Position numbers and translations under genes: made by a program
In this document: positions 1 to 10,567 of the stretch, one piece after another
Layout: each line of letters opens with the position of its first letter
Position numbering within the stretch: the first letter of the stretch is position 1
IMG/VR virus record: IMGVR_UViG_2529292726_000017
Source of the DNA: a virus
Lineage: Duplodnaviria; Heunggongvirae; Uroviricota; Caudoviricetes
Reading direction: 5' to 3' (one strand)
DNA: 10,567 nt
The notes under the pieces: model-generated
What the model saw: the letters and a program-made list of their open reading frames with translations, nothing else
The model's database searches: none
Told to the model about the DNA's origin: nothing

Positions 1-2111
<2,111 letters not shown>

Positions 2112-2140
<29 letters not shown>

Positions 2141-2836
2141 AACGCACACCTCCGGAAATACCTTCCCCAAGATGCATCAGTTCTTCGTCCGTTCGCTCCG
2201 GTATCCCGTTCTCTTCCGGTAAAAGGCTGAAATCAGCCACCGCAGCATCACTGCTGCCGGACACCATTCTCACGATCAATGCCTTCAGCGAGGCAAACTG
2301 CGCATCCATCCACACATCACTGAAGCTCTGCATCCGGAAATAATCGCCCCACTCACCAAGCTCAGTGGCTGACATTTCCGACAGCATCCGCCGCCAGTCT
2401 GCCCGCCGGAACTCCCGGGCAAGCCGCATGACAAACTGCATTTCCCGCGTCAGGACTTTTCCGGCGTCAGCACCTCATGCTCCAAATCCCCGGCATTCTC
2501 AATGGCTCCCATACCGCTCAGCGACAGAACCATCTCCGCCCCCGCTCCCAGGGCATCATACGACCATGTTGTAATAACGGATGCGCAAAGCGTCTCAACA
2601 TCCTGAGACTGTTCCGCATTCCACAGTGAGCGGGAAACCAGCCAGGCATTGATATCCATCCCCATCCGCAGAAAAGCAATCTGTCGTTCAGCCTCCGGCA
2701 GTTCTCCCTCTTCGGCATCAAACTTTGCCGTTCGCTGCTGAACAAACGCCAGATATTCAATTCTCTGCAGCCCGGACAGCTCACTGAGCACCACGGACTG
2801 CTTTTCATAATTAAACGTGCCCTGTTTCAGAAACAT
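2112..2836 (-). CDS. tail assembly chaperone G-T fusion (lambda gpGT-like), made by programmed -1 frameshift near 2456..2464
   Basis: T-frame ORF 2112..2441 (…ADWRRMLSEMSATELGEWGDYF…GGVRYG) resembles lambda gpT (WRRMLS and GGVRYG motifs). It lies in the -1 frame relative to G and is open from 2474 through the G stop. No independent RBS or start is needed. Confidence 0.7.
2450..2836 (-). CDS. tail assembly chaperone G (lambda gpG-like)
   Basis: MFLKQGTFNYEKQSVVLSELSGLQRIEYLAF… versus lambda G MFLKTESFEHNGVTVTLSELSALQRIEHLAL. Start ATG 2836..2834 with GGTGGAG 6 nt upstream; stop TGA 2452..2450. Confidence 0.85.
   Translation of the reverse strand: MFLKQGTFNYEKQSVVLSELSGLQRIEYLAFVQQRTAKFDAEEGELPEAERQIAFLRMGMDINAWLVSRSLWNAEQSQDVETLCASVITTWSYDALGAGAEMVLSLSGMGAIENAGDLEHEVLTPEKS
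2456..2464 (-). promoter_or_regulatory. candidate -1 ribosomal frameshift site (CCG GAA AAG, slippery G_GAA_AAG) at the 3' end of G
   Basis: Minus-strand sequence ...ACG CCG GAA AAG TCC TGA. Slipping tRNA-Lys from AAG to AAA enters the open T frame (GGA AAA GTC CTG ACG CGG GAA ATG CAG...). Position is equivalent to the lambda G GGA AAG site, with one substitution. Confidence 0.55.
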
Positions 2837-2852
2837 CATGTTCTCCACCTGC

Positions 2853-2876
2853 AAAAAAGCCCCGGATAACCGGGGC
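2853..2876 (-). terminator. intrinsic terminator-like hairpin between V and G
   Basis: Minus strand reads GCCCCGG-TTAT-CCGGGGC followed by TTTTTT: a perfect 7-bp GC-rich stem, 4-nt loop and 6-T run, about 20 nt after the V stop. Confidence 0.6.
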
Positions 2877-2896
2877 AAATGATGAGTATCGTCCTG

Positions 2897-3640
2897 TTAA
2901 CCTGCGGCGCTGACAGCCACCGCAGCCACTGCCACAAAATCGCCGTCAGAAGTCATGCCCACAATGCTGACACTGCCCTGCTTCACGCCTTTCACCGTGG
3001 CCACAAGCCCGTTCAGGGTCACCGTGGCAGTCTGTGGATCTGTCGAATGCACACTGATCGCTTTGTCACTGGCTCCGTCAGGTTTTACTGTAAAGGTCAG
3101 CGTGGTGGTTGCTCCCACTTTTACACTGGCAGATGCCGGTGCCACCGTCAGCCCGGTAACGCTCACTGTTTCAGTGCCTTCCTCTGCCAGATACGGACGC
3201 CCCACACCGCTGATTTTCACTGTACGGGTCATCACGTCTTTTGAGGCAATGGTTTTACCCAGTGAGCTCAGCCAGCCACGGAAAACATCAACAGTGCCGT
3301 TGGGATATTTGATACGAAACGCGCAGACTTCACCGGAGTCGAACAACTGAACCAGTTTTTTCTGCCCGCTGTCACCCGGACGCCAGGCCAGCGTCGCCGA
3401 AGTATCACCGACGGATTTCTGCCCCTGGGTTGTCGTTTTCCAGTCTGCATCTTCATCATCGAGATAAGAGTCATCTTCTGCATCAGCGGTCATTTCGCCA
3501 GGTTGCAGATCCTTCACCATCGCAAGACGCAGCCAGTCAGTGTCCGATAAAGGGTTCGCAAACGCATCGCCCTTGCCGGTGTACATCCAGAACGTCGTTC
3601 CCGCACCTTTCGTTTTTGCCAGTGGATTTGGTGTGGTCAT
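2897..3640 (-). CDS. major tail (tail tube) protein, lambda gpV-like, with C-terminal Ig-like domain
   Basis: MTTPNPLAKTKGAGTTFWMYTGKGDAFANPLSDTDW…YLDDEDADW…NGTVDVFRGW closely parallels lambda V ([36 protein letters not shown]…SYLDDEDADW…NGTVDVFRGW). ATG 3640..3638 has AGGAGG 5 nt upstream; the track's 3646 start is GTG. C-terminal ~90 aa is T/V/S/A-rich, Ig-like. Confidence 0.9.
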   Translation of the reverse strand: MTTPNPLAKTKGAGTTFWMYTGKGDAFANPLSDTDWLRLAMVKDLQPGEMTADAEDDSYLDDEDADWKTTTQGQKSVGDTSATLAWRPGDSGQKKLVQLFDSGEVCAFRIKYPNGTVDVFRGWLSSLGKTIASKDVMTRTVKISGVGRPYLAEEGTETVSVTGLTVAPASASVKVGATTTLTFTVKPDGASDKAISVHSTDPQTATVTLNGLVATVKGVKQGSVSIVGMTSDGDFVAVAAVAVSAAG

Positions 3641-3651
3641 TGCCACCTCCT

Positions 3652-4053
3652 TTAATTCGTGTACGTGATCTGGTACGTGATTTCCGCCATCGCCCAGGTG
3701 GCCATCTCATTATCACGTTGATAGTTAAAACCGAGAGGGATCAGGGTGTCGATGAGTCCGGAAAGTGCCGGTATATCATTCAGGGCCGGGAAAATGGTGC
3801 TCTCCATCCACATATCCAGCTCTGAATCCGGTGCCTGTGCCCGGATGAAGACAGCAATATGCAGAACAGCCTGCCAGTCATCTTCATCCGTCATTTTTCC
3901 GGTGTACTGAGCATCACTCAGCCACACCGCCACGGCAGGCAGTTCCTGCGCATCAATAAATGCCGGAAGCCCGTCAAAAAACGTGGCGCTGTCTCCACAC
4001 TGTTCCCGAAGGCGTGCCAGTACGGCCTGGCGGATTTGTGTATGTCGGTTCAT
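3652..4053 (-). CDS. tail terminator protein, lambda gpU-like
   Basis: MNRHTQIRQAVLARL…ATFFDG…FPAVAVWL…DIPALSGLI versus lambda U MKHTELRAAVLDAL…ATFFDG…FPAVAVYL…DIPALSDLI. ATG 4053..4051 overlaps the Z stop (ATGA); the track's start at 4065 is 4 codons upstream. Confidence 0.85.
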   Translation of the reverse strand: MNRHTQIRQAVLARLREQCGDSATFFDGLPAFIDAQELPAVAVWLSDAQYTGKMTDEDDWQAVLHIAVFIRAQAPDSELDMWMESTIFPALNDIPALSGLIDTLIPLGFNYQRDNEMATWAMAEITYQITYTN

Positions 4054-4628
4054 CGGGTCAGCCATAACCTCAGTTGTTGTTTCAGTGCATACCCCAGCTG
4101 TTTCGGCATTTCCGCAGCAATGATGCGGTCGCGGGCATCTTCAAATGCCTGTGTCAGCGGTCCGGAAAGCGGGATTTTCACCACATCAATGGGGTAACGA
4201 TTTTTGCCATCAATACGCCGCATCACATGCCAGCGACCATTCGCCAGTTGCTGAATAAACGCATCCCGGAAAAGATATTTACCCACCTTCAGCACACTGC
4301 CACGGTACTGCAGTTTTCCACCACGCCGGGCTAGTCTGACCCGGGCTGTCCCCAGCTTAATGGCGGGAAGATTGCCCCGGTTAACGCGGATCCTGGCCGT
4401 CATTTTTCCTGACGGACTGGCTTTAAACACCCGGACACGCTGACGTACCAGTTTCAGGGGGATCCCTTTCACCTGGTTATCTCCCGCAACGGTATTCCCG
4501 GCAACCTGCCGGGTGGCAACCGAGACCGCTTTCTGTGCCACACGGTTTATCGCCCATGCGCTGGCCTGTGGCACCATACGGGTATCAAGGCTGTTCAGAT
4601 TGCGGATGGCATTCTCAAGCCCCTTCAT
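4050..4628 (-). CDS. tail completion protein, lambda gpZ-like
   Basis: MKGLENAIRNL…AWAINRVA…NGRWHVMRRIDGKNRYPIDVVKIPL…LGYALKQQLR versus lambda Z …IKGLEQAVENL…NGRWHVMQRVAGKNRYPIDVVKIP…LGYALQHQLR. GAGGT RBS before ATG 4628. Confidence 0.85.
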   Translation of the reverse strand: MKGLENAIRNLNSLDTRMVPQASAWAINRVAQKAVSVATRQVAGNTVAGDNQVKGIPLKLVRQRVRVFKASPSGKMTARIRVNRGNLPAIKLGTARVRLARRGGKLQYRGSVLKVGKYLFRDAFIQQLANGRWHVMRRIDGKNRYPIDVVKIPLSGPLTQAFEDARDRIIAAEMPKQLGYALKQQLRLWLTR

Positions 4629-4639
4629 CCCACACCTCT

Positions 4640-4915
4640 TTACTCAATAAAGATCATTGGCTTACCGTTAAAACGTTCATGCCGTGTGACCGTCCATTGT
4701 TGTCCGTCATAAACAACGTGATCCCCGCGCCGTGGGCGGTATCCCGAAGAAAACACCACCAGAGAGACCGCAGGTCCGGACAGAGCATTCAGCTCTGCCA
4801 GTGTTTCGCCCGGGATCACAGCCATATCGACATCATTAATCGAGGCTGTCTTTCCCATCTTTCTGACCGTGATCGCATCCATACGCGCTGCCAGCCGGGA
4901 AAAGGGATCAGACAT
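4640..4915 (-). CDS. small head-tail connector / head completion protein occupying the lambda FII position
   Basis: 91-aa ORF between the post-capsid small protein and Z. Assignment is by position and size only; no clear similarity to lambda FII that I can recall. Start overlaps the upstream gene stop by 8 nt. Confidence 0.5.
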   Translation of the reverse strand: MSDPFSRLAARMDAITVRKMGKTASINDVDMAVIPGETLAELNALSGPAVSLVVFSSGYRPRRGDHVVYDGQQWTVTRHERFNGKPMIFIE

Positions 4916-5231
4916 TGAGTTTTACCTGCACTTCTTCTGCACTGGTTCCGGCATCTGCCCAGACAACCCCGACCAGCGGATCAGAGCCGCTGTTAGTCAG
5001 CTGAACTTTTCCGGACTTCAGATAAACCTTCTTACCCGTTTTCATGTCATCCGTTTTCAGTTTAGGCAGGATAAACACACCTTCGGTCATGCCGTCGCCT
5101 GTTTCACCCTGTGGAATATCGGTCAGCGCCACCGCAAAAACATCACCCACCTGCACCAGATCTCCGCTGCTGATGGCTGCACTGGCAACAATCGCCACCG
5201 TTTTTCCTTCTTCTACAAAATTCTTTGCCAT
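4908..5231 (-). CDS. small protein following the capsid gene, possible head decoration / cementing protein
   Basis: ORF 4908..5276; likely start is ATG 5231..5229 (MAKNFVEEGKTVAIV…) with GGAG 6 nt upstream. Gly/Val-rich, about 107 aa, immediately downstream of the capsid gene. Function is inferred from position, not sequence. Confidence 0.55.
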   Translation of the reverse strand: MAKNFVEEGKTVAIVASAAISSGDLVQVGDVFAVALTDIPQGETGDGMTEGVFILPKLKTDDMKTGKKVYLKSGKVQLTNSGSDPLVGVVWADAGTSAEEVQVKLNV

Positions 5232-5274
5232 AACTGTCTCCGCACAGCCCCGTTCAGAGGCTGATTTCAGGTAC

Positions 5275-5293
5275 AAAAAAAGCCCTTACGGGC
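5275..5293 (-). terminator. weak terminator-like hairpin + T7 run just downstream of the capsid gene
   Basis: Minus strand reads GCCC-GTAA-GGGC followed by TTTTTTT, about 25 nt after the capsid stop (5318). The stem is only 4 bp, so confidence is modest. Confidence 0.4.
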
Positions 5294-5317
5294 CATCAGA
5301 GTTGTTGTCTGCGACGT

Positions 5318-7276
5318 TTACGCCGTACATTTCACCAGACCGCGGTGATCAACTGGCGCGACACCGGCGTCAATACGCACTTTCGTTGTCACGCCATCCA
5401 CACTGAAGCCCTCCATCTGATCAATATATGGCGTATCCACACCGTTGAGATAAGCCACTTCAATCGTATCGGAGCCTTTGGACGCAGCCAGGTAGAAGGT
5501 GGTCTGGCTGTTATCATCAAGACGAGGCTCTGCAATAACGGTCGCAAAATCTTTCACCGGGTTAATAATACCGGCGTTAATGTCAGCCCCCTTGACACTT
5601 GAGGAGCGAATGACCCGGTTAGCAACAGACTCCATCGCCGTCGGTACCAGTACGAACGCAGGACGAATATTCAGATGACGCTCCCCCTCTTTCTGAACGC
5701 GCATCAACTGGCGGGCTTTATCCAGCGATGCCACGTCCATTGCAGCGCTCTCCAGTACGTTTGCATGTTTCGCTTTATCGAACAGACTTACATTATCTGT
5801 GGAGATTTTCGGGTTAGACGTCAGAATGGCATAAACCAGATCGGCAATGGTGGATTTCGCCGCACGGCCCAGCTTCATCGGGACATCGGTCAGCATATTC
5901 AGATCATCATTGATAATGGCCTGACGGGTGATACTGAACAGCTCGCCATAGGTCGCCAGTGCAATAGTGGCCTGTTTATCTCCGGTGGTGACGTATTTAT
6001 ATTCCGCCCCTTCACGCACCTGACGCAGAGCACTGAAGCCCCCCATACCCACACGATGGGCAATTTTAAAATCAGACAACTGACCTTTCCGCGTCCACTG
6101 TTCATAGGTTTCAGGAGCATCTTCCCAGCCCTGCAGAATGGCTTTGTTCGCAACATCCAGCAGAATATTACCGAAGTCAGACGTACTGTGTGTGAACGCC
6201 GCACCGACCATCTGCATCGGGTTATAACTGGAAACCCCAATACCCCGTTCAGTCAGTGACATACGGGCATATTCACGCAGGGTCATCCCGTTGTAGACAT
6301 TATCACGTTCGGTTTTTTCAAATCCGGCACGCGCCATCAGCGCCTGGCGGATCCCGTCCCCCACAAAATTACCGTTACCGGCATAAATATGAGCCGGGGT
6401 ATTTTTATTGGATGGCGTGGACTCGCGCCCCATCTCGTTCAACAGCTTTTCGCGGGCCTGCTCCAGCGAACATTCAGGATCGGCAAGACACTGAGCCTGC
6501 AGCGTCTGATAACGCCCGCCAAACATGGCAAACAGATCATTAATACCGTTTACACGCGCTTTTTGCTCTGCCAGTACCTGCGCACGGATACTGTTTTCAT
6601 CCACCACGGGTGCTGCTGCCTGCACTGGCGTCCGGGAGGCTGCAGGTTCATCATCCTGTACGCGTGGAGCACTGTTGCGTGGCGGAGTAATCATGTTTCG
6701 AATGGATTCCGGCATCTTTTTAAATTCCTCTGTACGTTTTGACTGAATACATGCCATTGCCTTAACGGCTGGCGTTACCTGATCAGCAAATCCATGTGCC
6801 AGACATTCGGCACCGGACATCCAGGTCTCATCCGCCAGCATGGCAGCAATTTCATCGGTGGTTTTCCCGGTTTTCTGTGCATAAGCGGGTAACAGAACCG
6901 CCTCAACTTTATCGAGCAGGTCGGCATAGGTGCGCATGTCCTCCGCATCACCGCCCGTAAAGCCAAATGGTTTATGAATCATCATGAAAGTGTTTTCCGG
7001 CATAATGACCGGGTTTCCCACCATCGCAATGACCGACGCCATTGACGCCGCCACACCGTCGACATAAACGGTAATGGACGCACCATGTGTTTTCAGCGCA
7101 TTAAAAATGGCGATGCCTTCAAAGACATCGCCACCCGGTGAATTAATATGGAGATTAATGTGGGTGATATCGCCCAGTGCATTCAGATCACTGATAAACT
7201 GCTTCGCTGTAACACCCCAGAAACCAATCTCGTCATAAATATAAATATCCGCGTCACTCTGGTGACCAGCCTGCAT
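5318..7276 (-). CDS. prohead protease (S49/ClpP-like) fused to major capsid protein in one ORF
   Basis: N-terminal part DIYIYDEIGFWGVTAKQF…INSPGGDVFEGIAIFNAL…VDGVAASMASVIAMVG… is S49/ClpP-like. A P/Q/A-rich linker follows, then an ~400-aa capsid-like domain ending …VAPVDHRGLVKCTA. Start taken as ATG 7276..7274, 14 nt after the portal stop (weak RBS); the track ORF extends to 7537 through the portal 3' end. Confidence 0.8.
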   Translation of the reverse strand: MQAGHQSDADIYIYDEIGFWGVTAKQFISDLNALGDITHINLHINSPGGDVFEGIAIFNALKTHGASITVYVDGVAASMASVIAMVGNPVIMPENTFMMIHKPFGFTGGDAEDMRTYADLLDKVEAVLLPAYAQKTGKTTDEIAAMLADETWMSGAECLAHGFADQVTPAVKAMACIQSKRTEEFKKMPESIRNMITPPRNSAPRVQDDEPAASRTPVQAAAPVVDENSIRAQVLAEQKARVNGINDLFAMFGGRYQTLQAQCLADPECSLEQAREKLLNEMGRESTPSNKNTPAHIYAGNGNFVGDGIRQALMARAGFEKTERDNVYNGMTLREYARMSLTERGIGVSSYNPMQMVGAAFTHSTSDFGNILLDVANKAILQGWEDAPETYEQWTRKGQLSDFKIAHRVGMGGFSALRQVREGAEYKYVTTGDKQATIALATYGELFSITRQAIINDDLNMLTDVPMKLGRAAKSTIADLVYAILTSNPKISTDNVSLFDKAKHANVLESAAMDVASLDKARQLMRVQKEGERHLNIRPAFVLVPTAMESVANRVIRSSSVKGADINAGIINPVKDFATVIAEPRLDDNSQTTFYLAASKGSDTIEVAYLNGVDTPYIDQMEGFSVDGVTTKVRIDAGVAPVDHRGLVKCTA

Positions 7277-7289
7277 CCTGAACCAGGAA

Positions 7290-8798
7290 TTATTCTTCGG
7301 ACTGGTCGTCGGTGTGCTGCGGCTCCTGTCGTTTCGTTGCGGCACTGCTGCCTCCTTTATCACTGGCCGGATCGGTATCAAATACCAGATCCAGCTTGCG
7401 GTTTTCATCAATTTCGGCCTTGCGCCGACGTTTGACATCATCCGGATTACGACCACCTGCACGTACCCAGTCTGATTCTGTCGCCGCTCCACCACGAATC
7501 TGGATTTTCCAGGCCTCAGCCTCCTTAACAGGGTCAATCCACGGCATCACCGGTCCGGAATACACCGCGGTATACAGTGAAGAACGGTCAAGATCGCGGG
7601 GTAGCCTGATAACACCGGATGCCACAGCCTGTTTCAGCCAGGCACGATACATCGGGCGGGTGACGGCACCAATAAACCAGTCCTGCAGGATCAGGTAGCC
7701 ATCAGTAGACTCAACCAGTTCCTGACGCTGGGCGCTGTAAGTGCCGTTATAGTTGCGTGCCGTACTGGAAAAACTCAGACGACTGCCCGCCGCCACGGCA
7801 CGCAACTGACCATTACGAAAAGTTTCAAGGTTAGGATTGGGACGATCCGACTTCACCATTCCGATTTCTTCGCCGGGTTTCAGATCGTCGTAAATAATGC
7901 CTGGCTGAATGGTAAGCTCGCGTTCATTCTCCTTGCTGCCATTACCATCCGGTTCATAGCTCTGCCCGTCGCCTTTCCGGATGTACATCCCCAGAGCAGC
8001 GGCGATCCTTGCTGCAGTCAGCTCAGAATCTTCATACTCTTTCAGGGCACTGAGGCGGATCAGCACACCGGACAACAAAGACGTCCCGCGCATCTGGTGC
8101 AGACGGCGAACAAATTTAAGATGCAGCATTCGCTCTGCATCCACTTCTTTGGTTTCCATCTGCCGCCCGGATACGGGACGGCTTTTATACACCAGATATT
8201 TTTCGGGACGCCCCCAGTCATCAACAAACACGCCCTGATTCAGCCTGTTGCTATCATCACTGGTCATGGGAATAAAGTCCGGCTCGAGCGCCTCCAGCCA
8301 GAAATTAACACCGGCAGAAGGCGTCAGGCTGTTTATGCGCCCGGAAACCATCTGGGCAAACACCTCACCATCGCGCAGCCAGGTACGCAGCATCAGACGT
8401 TCCAGCATCGGACGGGTAAACTGCCCGGTGACTTCCGGACTGACAGACCATTCACTCCATCGGGTGCGAATCTCCGCAGCCAGGTCACGGGCAATGGCCC
8501 CATTGCGTAATACCGGATGTGGCTCGACAATAATCCCGTTTTTCCCCACCACCCGTTCTTCCAGCTTGTCAAATACACCAATAACCAGATCGTGGTTGTT
8601 ATCAAGGTAACGGGCCTGCTCACGTAACGACACGGCCCCGTACTGGCTTAACTGGTCGGCAGTTCGGTTTTCCCGCCGGGCTTTGTGTGTCCGCGTCGTT
8701 TTTACGGCCTCATAAGCCTGGATCACCGCACGGGAACGCAGCCTTGCCGCTTTCCATCCTGGTGAAAAAACGCCAATCACATCATCAAGAATAGCCAT
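7290..8798 (-). CDS. portal protein (lambda gpB family)
   Basis: 502 aa from ATG 8798..8796 (MAILDDVIGVFSPGWKAARLRS…), GAGG 5 nt upstream; the ATG overlaps the W stop (TGATG). Size and position (after terminase and W, before protease) fit a portal, with scattered gpB-like motifs. The track ORF begins 24 codons upstream at 8870. Confidence 0.8.
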   Translation of the reverse strand: MAILDDVIGVFSPGWKAARLRSRAVIQAYEAVKTTRTHKARRENRTADQLSQYGAVSLREQARYLDNNHDLVIGVFDKLEERVVGKNGIIVEPHPVLRNGAIARDLAAEIRTRWSEWSVSPEVTGQFTRPMLERLMLRTWLRDGEVFAQMVSGRINSLTPSAGVNFWLEALEPDFIPMTSDDSNRLNQGVFVDDWGRPEKYLVYKSRPVSGRQMETKEVDAERMLHLKFVRRLHQMRGTSLLSGVLIRLSALKEYEDSELTAARIAAALGMYIRKGDGQSYEPDGNGSKENERELTIQPGIIYDDLKPGEEIGMVKSDRPNPNLETFRNGQLRAVAAGSRLSFSSTARNYNGTYSAQRQELVESTDGYLILQDWFIGAVTRPMYRAWLKQAVASGVIRLPRDLDRSSLYTAVYSGPVMPWIDPVKEAEAWKIQIRGGAATESDWVRAGGRNPDDVKRRRKAEIDENRKLDLVFDTDPASDKGGSSAATKRQEPQHTDDQSEE

Positions 8799-9010
8799 CA
8801 GAACCTCGCCAGCCGGTACCCGGGATGCCCCCGTCGTCGTGTAATCAGAGCCGCAAGGCGGCGCTCCCACTCCTGCCGTCCCTGCCGGATCTCAGATAAG
8901 TTTTCCATGGTCATCTGCTGACCATTAAAGGTGACGGATTTTCCGTCCAGCACCGCCATTTCAGCTTCCGTATAACGCTGAATCATGGCTTCGATATCAT
9001 TCTGGTTCAT
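8798..9010 (-). CDS. head completion / head-tail joining protein, lambda gpW-like
   Basis: MNQNDIEAMIQRYTEAEMAVLDGKSVTFNGQQMTMENLSEIRQ…RRRGHPGYRLARF has the size and C-terminal RRRG motif of lambda W (…QRRRGPAGFYV). ATG 9010..9008 has GGAGG 6 nt upstream and overlaps the terminase stop (ATGA). Confidence 0.75.
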   Translation of the reverse strand: MNQNDIEAMIQRYTEAEMAVLDGKSVTFNGQQMTMENLSEIRQGRQEWERRLAALITRRRGHPGYRLARF

Positions 9011-10239
9011 AACCATCCTCCGGAAGTCAGCCAGGGGTTAACATCGTCAGTTACTGTTTTCTTCCGTTTTTGTTTTTTAACAGGCGTGGATACCGGTTCC
9101 GGTGAGGGTGACGGTTCGGTACTGTCCGGGACACACTCCAGCCAGGTTTCCCGGCTCGCCCACTCCGGTGCATCCGGCCAGCGGATCTTTTCGTATCCAT
9201 GCAGAATGACCAGAGCCTCGGCATACACCATCAGGTCAAAAGCTTCGTTGGCACCGCGACCCGGCTTACTCCATTTCCCGTCACTACTCCGCTCTTCATA
9301 CGTCAGTTCGTCGTAAAACCAGCTCCCCAGCCAGTCAGGGAAATGCACATAGCCGGGACCTGGCGAGTCACGCCATAACGCGTTATTCACCCGGTCTTTC
9401 AGGGCATCCGTCTGAAGAAGCCAGAGCGGCACATCACCTGCGGCCTGCGCCCGTCGGCCCGTTCGTCCGGTGTTATCAGGGAATGTACGGGTGATCAGTT
9501 TTGCGCGCCGGATGCTGTCGCCCTTAAACAGGTAAATACGTTTACCAAGGCCATCACGACGGCAACGACGCCAGAATTTATAGGCATTATCAGTGACCCC
9601 GTCTTCACCGCCGGAGTCCACCGCCATTGCCATCAGTCGCATTTGTTGAGAAGGATCGGAGGCCAGCGGCCAGCTTTTATGAAAAACATCCGTCAGCAGG
9701 ACATCCCAGTCTTCCGGATAGCTGGCCGGATCAATTCGCTGGCTCTCCCCGTCGCTGTCACCGCGCAATGACTGCGTGATGTTGTAACGATCAATAATCC
9801 AGCGTTCGCCACGGCTGCCATAGCCCGTTACCTGAACCACAAAACGGCGATGACGTCCCGCCTGCACATCAACTGTCGCCACCAGGAAATTAACGCCATC
9901 CGGCACACTGCGGGAAGGAACTGGCTCTGCCCGCTGCTCAAGCAGTTCACTTTTTCGTTGCTCCATGCTGACACGGGGAAGATAAGGTAATCCCCAGTCG
10001 GTATTGATAACCGTCTTGAGTGTTTCTTCACTTCCGGTTGTCTCGTATTCCTGTTCTGCAGTAAGCAGTTTGTAAACGAGTTGCGAGAGTGTCTGGTAAG
10101 CAGCTGCCGGACCCTCCATCCAGAATGACGCAATACGTGAGCGTCGGGGATCACCATAACGACTGCCATCCGCATTGATGGATTCACCATCCCGCAACCA
10201 GACCCCACGTCCGTTCAGCTCACGTTTTTGTTCAGGCAT
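9007..10239 (-). pseudogene. terminase large subunit (lambda gpA-like), C-terminal ~410 aa only; N-terminal ATPase region absent
   Basis: …GVWLRDG…TDWGLPYLP…FLVATVDVQ…RFVVQVTGYG…WIIDR… is colinear with lambda gpA from about residue 280 to the end (lambda GIWTRDG…, YLTAGIDSQ…, MRVWGWG…, WLIDRQ). The frame has a stop at 10293..10291 and nothing resembling the gpA N-terminal 280 aa lies upstream; a plus-strand ORF occupies that space instead. Confidence 0.8.
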
Positions 10240-10380
10240 AATCCGTCCTGAACATATGAGACGACAATAACTCAGTCCGCCTGGCGCCGATTATTCTGGC
10301 CGGTTTTGTAACCTGAGTGTCATTTACATGATCCAACAGGAAATGGCGTGACGCTCAATACTTCTCAGGTCAGTTACTAT

Positions 10381-10567
10381 ATGACTCAGCGTAAGAAAGG
10401 TATAACTCAGCATATCTCGGCCATGAAGGCTGGTATCTCAGTCCGTTCTGGTCGTCGGATCGAAAAAGGAGAGTGGGCAAAAAACAGTGTTCGGCACTGG
10501 CGCACACGCAAAGATCCTCTGGAAGCTGTGTGGGACAGCATGCTTGTTCCTCTGTTGAAAGAGAGGC
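10381..10567 (+). CDS. HTH-containing protein, N-terminal 62 codons (partial); possible transposase (IstA-like) or regulator
   Basis: ATG at 10381; translation MTQRKKGITQHISAMKAGISVRSGRRIEKGEWAKNSVRHWRTRKDPLEAVWDSMLVPLLKER. Predicted helix-turn-helix around ISAMKAGISVRSGRRI, laid out like the IstA HTH ([17 protein letters not shown]). Identity not established. Confidence 0.4.
   Translation, partial: MTQRKKGITQHISAMKAGISVRSGRRIEKGEWAKNSVRHWRTRKDPLEAVWDSMLVPLLKER

Follow-up and report, generated by a model that had tools for sequence, protein, structure and literature searches.

Members of the IS21 family encode a transposase, IstA, in which a pair of helix-turn-helix domains at the N-terminus (HTH-1 and HTH-2) accompanies a DDE domain, require a second protein, IstB, and are delimited by terminal inverted repeats (TIRs) with two repeats each and by short direct repeats (PMC10122671). 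In the IS5376 transposase, as resolved by cryo-EM, HTH-1 comprises residues 1-39 and HTH-2 residues 55-104, and in the transpososome of the family a single IstA tetramer binds a left end paired with a right one (PMC10122671). ISEc10 is an already catalogued and very common E. coli insertion sequence, and new insertions of this element near lpp have been observed in strain CFT073 under drug selection (PMC7482066); no work on the biochemistry of ISEc10 was found in the literature. The complete ISEc10 resembles IS21 and IS5376 in its istA-istB layout, in an IstA with an N-terminal HTH region and a DDE core, in an IstB of the AAA+ ATPase type, in long imperfect TIRs, each of which appears to contain two repeat blocks, in short target duplications and in hexamers that resemble a -35 element (right TIR) and a -10 element (left TIR). 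It differs from them in the size of IstA (499 aa, as opposed to ~400 aa in IS21/IS5376) and, together with its relatives, in target duplications of 5-7 bp where IS5376 produces 5 bp. The ISEc10-type IstA is also ~100-160 aa longer than the IstA proteins of IS5376 and IS100. ISPlge2 and ISEc10-like elements without a name, carried by plasmids of Klebsiella and Salmonella, which show 72-88% identity and are 2409-2411 bp long, share with ISEc10 the TIR tip, a GTG-initiated istA and 6-bp target duplications.

The DNA analysed here, hereafter the window, is a stretch of 10,567 nucleotides recorded as a Caudoviricetes virus (IMG/VR record IMGVR_UViG_2529292726_000017). The right end of the window is, with high confidence, the left end of an ISEc10 copy whose transposition target was the large terminase gene in a lambdoid prophage that had already been truncated by IS100 (Table 1). 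In local BLAST comparisons, positions 10255-10567 are identical (313/313) to the complete 2410-bp ISEc10 of E. coli 510016 (L002 8839..8527), and the complete 2410-bp copy of CFT073 is likewise 100% identical over this segment. The matches are labelled in RefSeq as transposases of the 'IS21-like element ISEc10 family', with istA and istB annotated, so that the second IS21-like insertion sequence which the original prediction placed at the terminase breakpoint is borne out. By megablast, the sequence 10240-10567 matches 870 of the 5426 complete E. coli genomes, with as many as 22 sites in one genome. Of the 925 E. coli records with a match, 789 cover 80% or more of the query and place it within a full-length annotated istA.

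Table 1. Features of the window that bear on the two insertion sequences and the terminase gene.
Feature	Position	Strand	Remarks
IS100 (IS21 family) left end	1..340	-	Tip TGTCACGAACGG at 340, istA ATG at 254; truncates the tape measure gene
Lambda-like terminase large subunit, 3' remnant (C-terminal 415 codons)	9007..10254	-	PF20454 GpA_nuclease, 289.6 bits
Phage bases TGAACA adjoining the IS tip	10249..10254		Expected target-site duplication if the insertion is simple
ISEc10 (IS21 family), left-terminal 313 nt, cut off by the window end	10255..10567	+	313/313 identity to complete copies
ISEc10 left TIR	10255..10302	+	Conserved tip block TATGAGACGACAAT and second conserved block GATTATTCTGGCC, both kept across six copies
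istA, 5' part (first 73 codons, N-terminal HTH region)	10348..10567	+	GTG at 10348; ATG at 10381 is codon 12

In both CFT073 and 510016 the ISEc10 copies carry istA (499 aa) followed by istB. In the CFT073 element istA measures 1500 nt (WP_000174402.1) and is directly followed on its 3' side by istB (756 nt), and in the identical full copies istB overlaps the istA stop; istB would be expected to follow istA in the window's own copy as well. The IstA of an identical full copy reaches 227 bits on the NCBIfam model for IS21 family transposases (NF033546, cut-off 160 bits) and its IstB 209 bits on PF01695. The only Pfam match of the full-length ISEc10 IstA (499 aa, encoded at L001 4100-5599) at E <= 0.01 is to Mu-transpos_C_2 (PF22483, 32 bits); the protein matches no rve/DDE or HTH model of Pfam at this threshold, yet clearly passes the NCBIfam IS21 model. 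With no Pfam match for the fragment in the window and this single one for the full-length protein, the NCBIfam model is required for the assignment of IstA to its family. The segment 10255-10567 is identical to ISEc10 (WP_000174402.1; IstB WP_000065240.1) of CFT073 and 510016 in its TIR, leader and first 73 istA codons, beginning with the first base of the element, and the IstA family model is matched by the protein of the identical full copy, the part of istA for the DDE core lying beyond the window. Over the 313 nt present, only the insertion site distinguishes this copy from the catalogued ones. ISPlge2 and the plasmid-borne relatives differ from the window at 12-28% of the nucleotides, and the copy in the window is ISEc10 proper.

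The boundary between phage and insertion sequence can be placed to the nucleotide. In a three-way alignment the window tracks the intact prophage to ...CCGTCCTGAACA, where the prophage reads on GGAAGG, and from TATGAGACGAC it tracks ISEc10. A comparison of six copies, drawn from the window, CFT073, 510016 and four relatives on plasmids (72-88% identity), showed a common sequence from exactly the base T at 10255, with unrelated flanks upstream. Every plasmid match in a distant-mode search likewise begins at query base 1, which corresponds to position 10255, and a repeat search on the complete 510016 copy revealed a 48-nt inverted repeat, 71% complementary, located exactly at both ends of the 2410-bp element. 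Direct repeats flank each of six complete copies, measuring 6 bp in four cases, 5 bp in one (GACCT) and 7 bp in another (ATCAGCG). Because of the unrelated flanks, the target duplications and the TIRs exactly at the ends, the start of the element is set at 10255 (TATGAGACGACAAT...) and not at 10294, where the original prediction had it; that position is wrong by 39 nt and falls inside the left TIR. The left TIR lies in the window, and its counterpart in the complete 510016 copy pairs with a right TIR; the right end in complete copies reads ...GTTGACGTCTAATA. Two conserved blocks ~23 nt apart were recognised by eye at each end, with weak similarity between L1 and L2 (~6/10); at the right end there are two copies of TAGTTG(A/G)CG, ~23 nt apart. 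The tips of ISEc10 take the form TAT...ATA, as opposed to TGT on the IS100 in the window. An initial megablast had pointed to a tip at the TG at 10249 (10246-10250, query positions 7-11). This proved to be a chance extension, of TGAACA against TGACCT, and was ruled out since 10249-10254 are phage sequence and differ in other copies.

From position 10381 the plus strand reads MTQRKKGITQHISAMKAGISVRSGRRIEKGEW..., and the open reading frame runs out of the window end. The description of this frame as starting with an IstA-like HTH is correct as regards its product, an IstA N-terminus, although translation most likely starts 33 nt further upstream, at the GTG at 10348 instead of the ATG at 10381. 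This start is favoured by an AGGA (10338-10341) that precedes the GTG by 6 nt, by the conservation of the GTG and the next 11 codons (VTLNTSQVSYY at the protein level) in all relatives, and by substitutions that are mostly in third positions. Variable columns at the first, second and third codon positions number 1/2/5 in 10348-10380, 22/12/45 in the downstream coding sequence and 9/8/7 in the non-coding leader upstream, the counts for 10348-10380 being small and indicating a preference, not proof. The RefSeq start of WP_000174402.1 is also the GTG equivalent to 10348. The 73-aa fragment aligns with positions 2-63 of NF033546 (E = 3e-4), below the cut-off by itself, being a fragment, and shows a weak match to an XRE/HipB-type HTH over residues 16-42; no Pfam match was found for the fragment at E <= 0.01. 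The positions of HTH-1 and HTH-2 in IS5376 fit the reading of this fragment as an IstA-like HTH.

Taken alone, the weak family matches of the fragment, including that to the XRE/HipB-type HTH (E = 0.0019), might be taken to indicate a phage or host HTH regulator whose resemblance to an insertion sequence is coincidental. The probability of such a coincidence is negligible, as the sequence agrees with ISEc10 at every base, also in the TIR, the intact prophages lack this sequence at this position, and the only matching records in the phage collection are six from Klebsiella with an 85% relative, annotated as a transposase. The regulator reading is already refuted: the open reading frame is the N-terminus of a transposase, and the sequence 10294-10380 matched insertion sequences only and never an intact prophage.

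The leader of ISEc10, estimated at ~65-85 bp in the original prediction, is longer, measuring 93 nt from the tip to the GTG at 10348 or 126 nt to the ATG at 10381, of which 45 nt lie between the left TIR and istA. The motifs TGTCA (10318) and TGATCCA (10329), on which the kinship with IS100 had been argued, do occur in both leaders. Their co-occurrence is, however, at chance level: the longest k-mer common to the ISEc10 and IS100 leaders is 7 nt, a length reached in 682 of 2000 shuffles, and 12 five-mers are common to both where 8.8 ± 3.4 are expected. The two motifs begin 64 and 75 nt from the tip of ISEc10 as opposed to 1 and 21 nt from that of IS100, so that TGTCA is the very tip of IS100 and lies 64 nt inside ISEc10, and conservation of either motif was not found among the ISEc10 relatives of 72-88% identity. 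As evidence for IS21 kinship the shared motifs were consequently rejected, and the right IS21 conclusion was reached from motif evidence carrying no weight.

Within ISEc10, the hexamer GACAAT at 10263-10268, 8 nt inside the left tip, is invariant among the relatives, all of which also have TTGACG in the right TIR, 7 nt inside the right tip (510016 L002 6437-6442). Joined in tandem or in a circle with a 2-3 bp spacer, the two ends would give a candidate TTGACG-N17/18-GACAAT promoter, which agrees with the junction promoter described for IS21 (PMC10122671). No complete sigma-70 promoter was found in a solo ISEc10 left end. Five copies of the hexamer [AT]CTCAG fall within the first 190 nt of ISEc10 (10270, 10363, 10384, 10405 and 10436), three of these at 21-nt intervals, against two in the other 2220 nt. 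The phased copies were considered as sub-terminal IstA sites and rejected, as four of the five are mutated in the relatives of 72-88% identity and some hexamer occurring at least three times arises in 6% of shuffles; the repeat is probably due to chance.

The phage DNA between the two IS tips extends over 9914 bp (341-10254) and is ~99.5% identical to intact lambdoid prophages. The latter match the window only from 341 on and as far as 10254, after which they read on into the terminase gene. The N-terminal 285 codons of the 700-aa terminase are missing from the remnant, and with them the ATPase domain (PF05876, GpA_ATPase) that occupies residues 41-304 of an intact homologue. Of the ATPase and nuclease domains of lambda-like gpA only the nuclease is left, and the gene is dead, a 3' pseudogene fragment. 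The break lies at 10254/10255 and not at the ATG at 10239 given by the list of open reading frames; this ATG was rejected as the terminase start, being an internal methionine, as the gene extends upstream in the intact prophages. The terminase insertion site of ISEc10 is apparently unrecorded, and unremarkable. Elsewhere in the remnant, open reading frames for the tail assembly chaperones G and T (2112-2878, minus strand) are arranged as in lambda G/GT, for which a programmed -1 frameshift is usual.

At the opposite end of the remnant, the junction with IS100 is identical to one in E. coli 510016 that RefSeq annotates; B7A has an annotated junction of a similar kind. The tape measure gene keeps ~600 N-terminal codons at this junction and has lost ~420 C-terminal codons. 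The IS100 IstA scores 321.7 bits on NF033546, and IS100 resembles ISEc10 in this family membership, in a left TIR facing the remnant and in truncating a phage structural gene; it differs in an IstA of 340 aa, a leader of 86 nt and an unrelated TIR. The bracketing of the phage genes by two IS21-like left ends is real as geometry, IS100 having its tip at 340 (minus strand) and ISEc10 at 10255 (plus strand), and both elements, while presenting their left TIRs to the remnant, transcribe outward from it.

This geometry, with both left TIRs turned to the phage segment, is what would be observed if the two left ends formed a composite unit mobilising the 9.9-kb segment. Such a unit is nevertheless very improbable. 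No significant BLASTP similarity was found between the IstA proteins of IS100 and ISEc10 (best E = 1.3), the TIR tips are unrelated (TGTCACGAACGG in IS100 and TATGAGACGACA in ISEc10), and a matched left and right end would be needed under one IstA tetramer (PMC10122671). The arrangement is neither the same insertion sequence twice nor a pair of ends under one transposase, as a composite transposon would be, and the segment 341-10254 with its IS ends was found at no other site with a target duplication, the matches being intact prophages. Moreover, 510016 shares the IS100 junction and has an intact terminase, from which it follows that the two junctions arose at different times, in independent events. 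IS100 and ISEc10 are very different elements that arrived separately, and the suggestion that their bracketing of the phage genes is meaningful is unsupported; with dissimilar IstA proteins, different TIRs and junctions of different age, it has no evident functional meaning.

The genome of 510016 matches window positions 1-10254 at 100%. It carries an ISEc10 copy of its own in the tape measure gene (L002 6430-8839), inserted at the equivalent of window positions 423-429 in the opposite orientation and flanked by the 7-bp duplication ATCAGCG, and its terminase is intact; in the window the site at 423-429 is uninterrupted. The empty site in the window and the intact terminase in 510016 together imply that ISEc10 was acquired independently in both lineages after the IS100 event, which suggests that ISEc10 has been active recently, and independently, among closely related lineages. 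In 510016 the lysozyme gene of this prophage is interrupted by ISEc62, a third element of the IS21 family (L002 21524-23490), so that this remnant carries IS100, ISEc10 and ISEc62, with IS2 and IS1 nearby.

The window ends 313 nt into ISEc10, and istB, the right TIR and the second copy of the target duplication would lie beyond it. For a simple insertion, the right junction is predicted to consist of the right TIR, TGAACA and then the rest of the terminase gene (GGAAGGACAC... / GGAAGGACACTGAATATAAG...). The left junction was absent from the 5426 complete E. coli genomes, from species-representative genomes and from metagenome contigs, and a synthetic right junction was absent from the same 5426 genomes and from metagenome contigs; as neither junction was found in the genomes and contigs searched, the simple insertion is without outside confirmation. 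The ISEc10 end could instead mark the edge of an IS-mediated rearrangement, such as an adjacent deletion, an inversion or recombination between ISEc10 copies. At the IS100 junction the distal tail genes of the prophage are already lost, in 510016 IS100 is followed by unrelated genes (IS2, yfdQ/yfdR) that suggest a rearrangement there, the presence of ISEc10 at up to 22 places per genome provides ample substrate for recombination, and the predicted right-hand junction was found nowhere among the sequences searched. The missing right junction is, however, uninformative, given that the left junction was found nowhere either; all complete copies examined have intact duplications of 5-7 bp, indicating that simple insertion is usual, and the intact terminase of the closest relative, 510016, indicates that the event is recent. 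A rearrangement is therefore considered unlikely. If it had occurred, the ATPase half of the terminase and all upstream prophage genes would have been removed, leaving the head and tail genes as a 9.9-kb block stranded between IS21-family elements unrelated to each other. In a weaker form of this reading ISEc10 would be unusually active in this lineage, since in 510016 it has independently entered the tape measure gene of the same remnant.

It is less likely still that the 313 nt are a solo left end, the dead fragment of a truncated ISEc10. Plasmid records do hold left-end pieces comprising query bases 1-62, 1-75 and 1-125, and IS-rich regions like this one often contain nested and truncated elements. 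Against this, there are zero differences over the 313 nt from active-looking full copies, and the great majority of the matching E. coli records (the 789 of 925 mentioned above) hold the sequence within a full-length istA. The window's ISEc10 copy is presumed to be complete beyond 10567, and the event to be a simple insertion and not the edge of a deletion or inversion.

Under simple insertion, the large terminase gene of the already IS100-truncated prophage would have been the target into which ISEc10 transposed. The visible part comprises the left TIR, the 45-nt leader and the start of an istA which, judging from the complete copies, codes for a transposase of the DDE type with HTH domains at its N-terminus, with istB providing an AAA+ helper ATPase. 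By analogy with studies of IS21 and IS5376, IstA would bind the two TIRs and IstB would deliver the target, resulting in a short staggered cut, and the cut would leave ~6 bp duplicated here (TGAACA). The insertion parts the ATPase domain of the terminase from its nuclease domain, and a defective prophage is thereby further inactivated.

The significance of these results beyond correct annotation is small, and mechanistically they are not new. The right end of the record should be annotated as the left end of ISEc10 from 10255 onwards, with the terminase labelled a pseudogene fragment (3' part), and the prophage as a whole has decayed to a remnant that at least two different elements of the IS21 family have cut, in which the insertion sites of ISEc10 could serve as a strain-typing marker.
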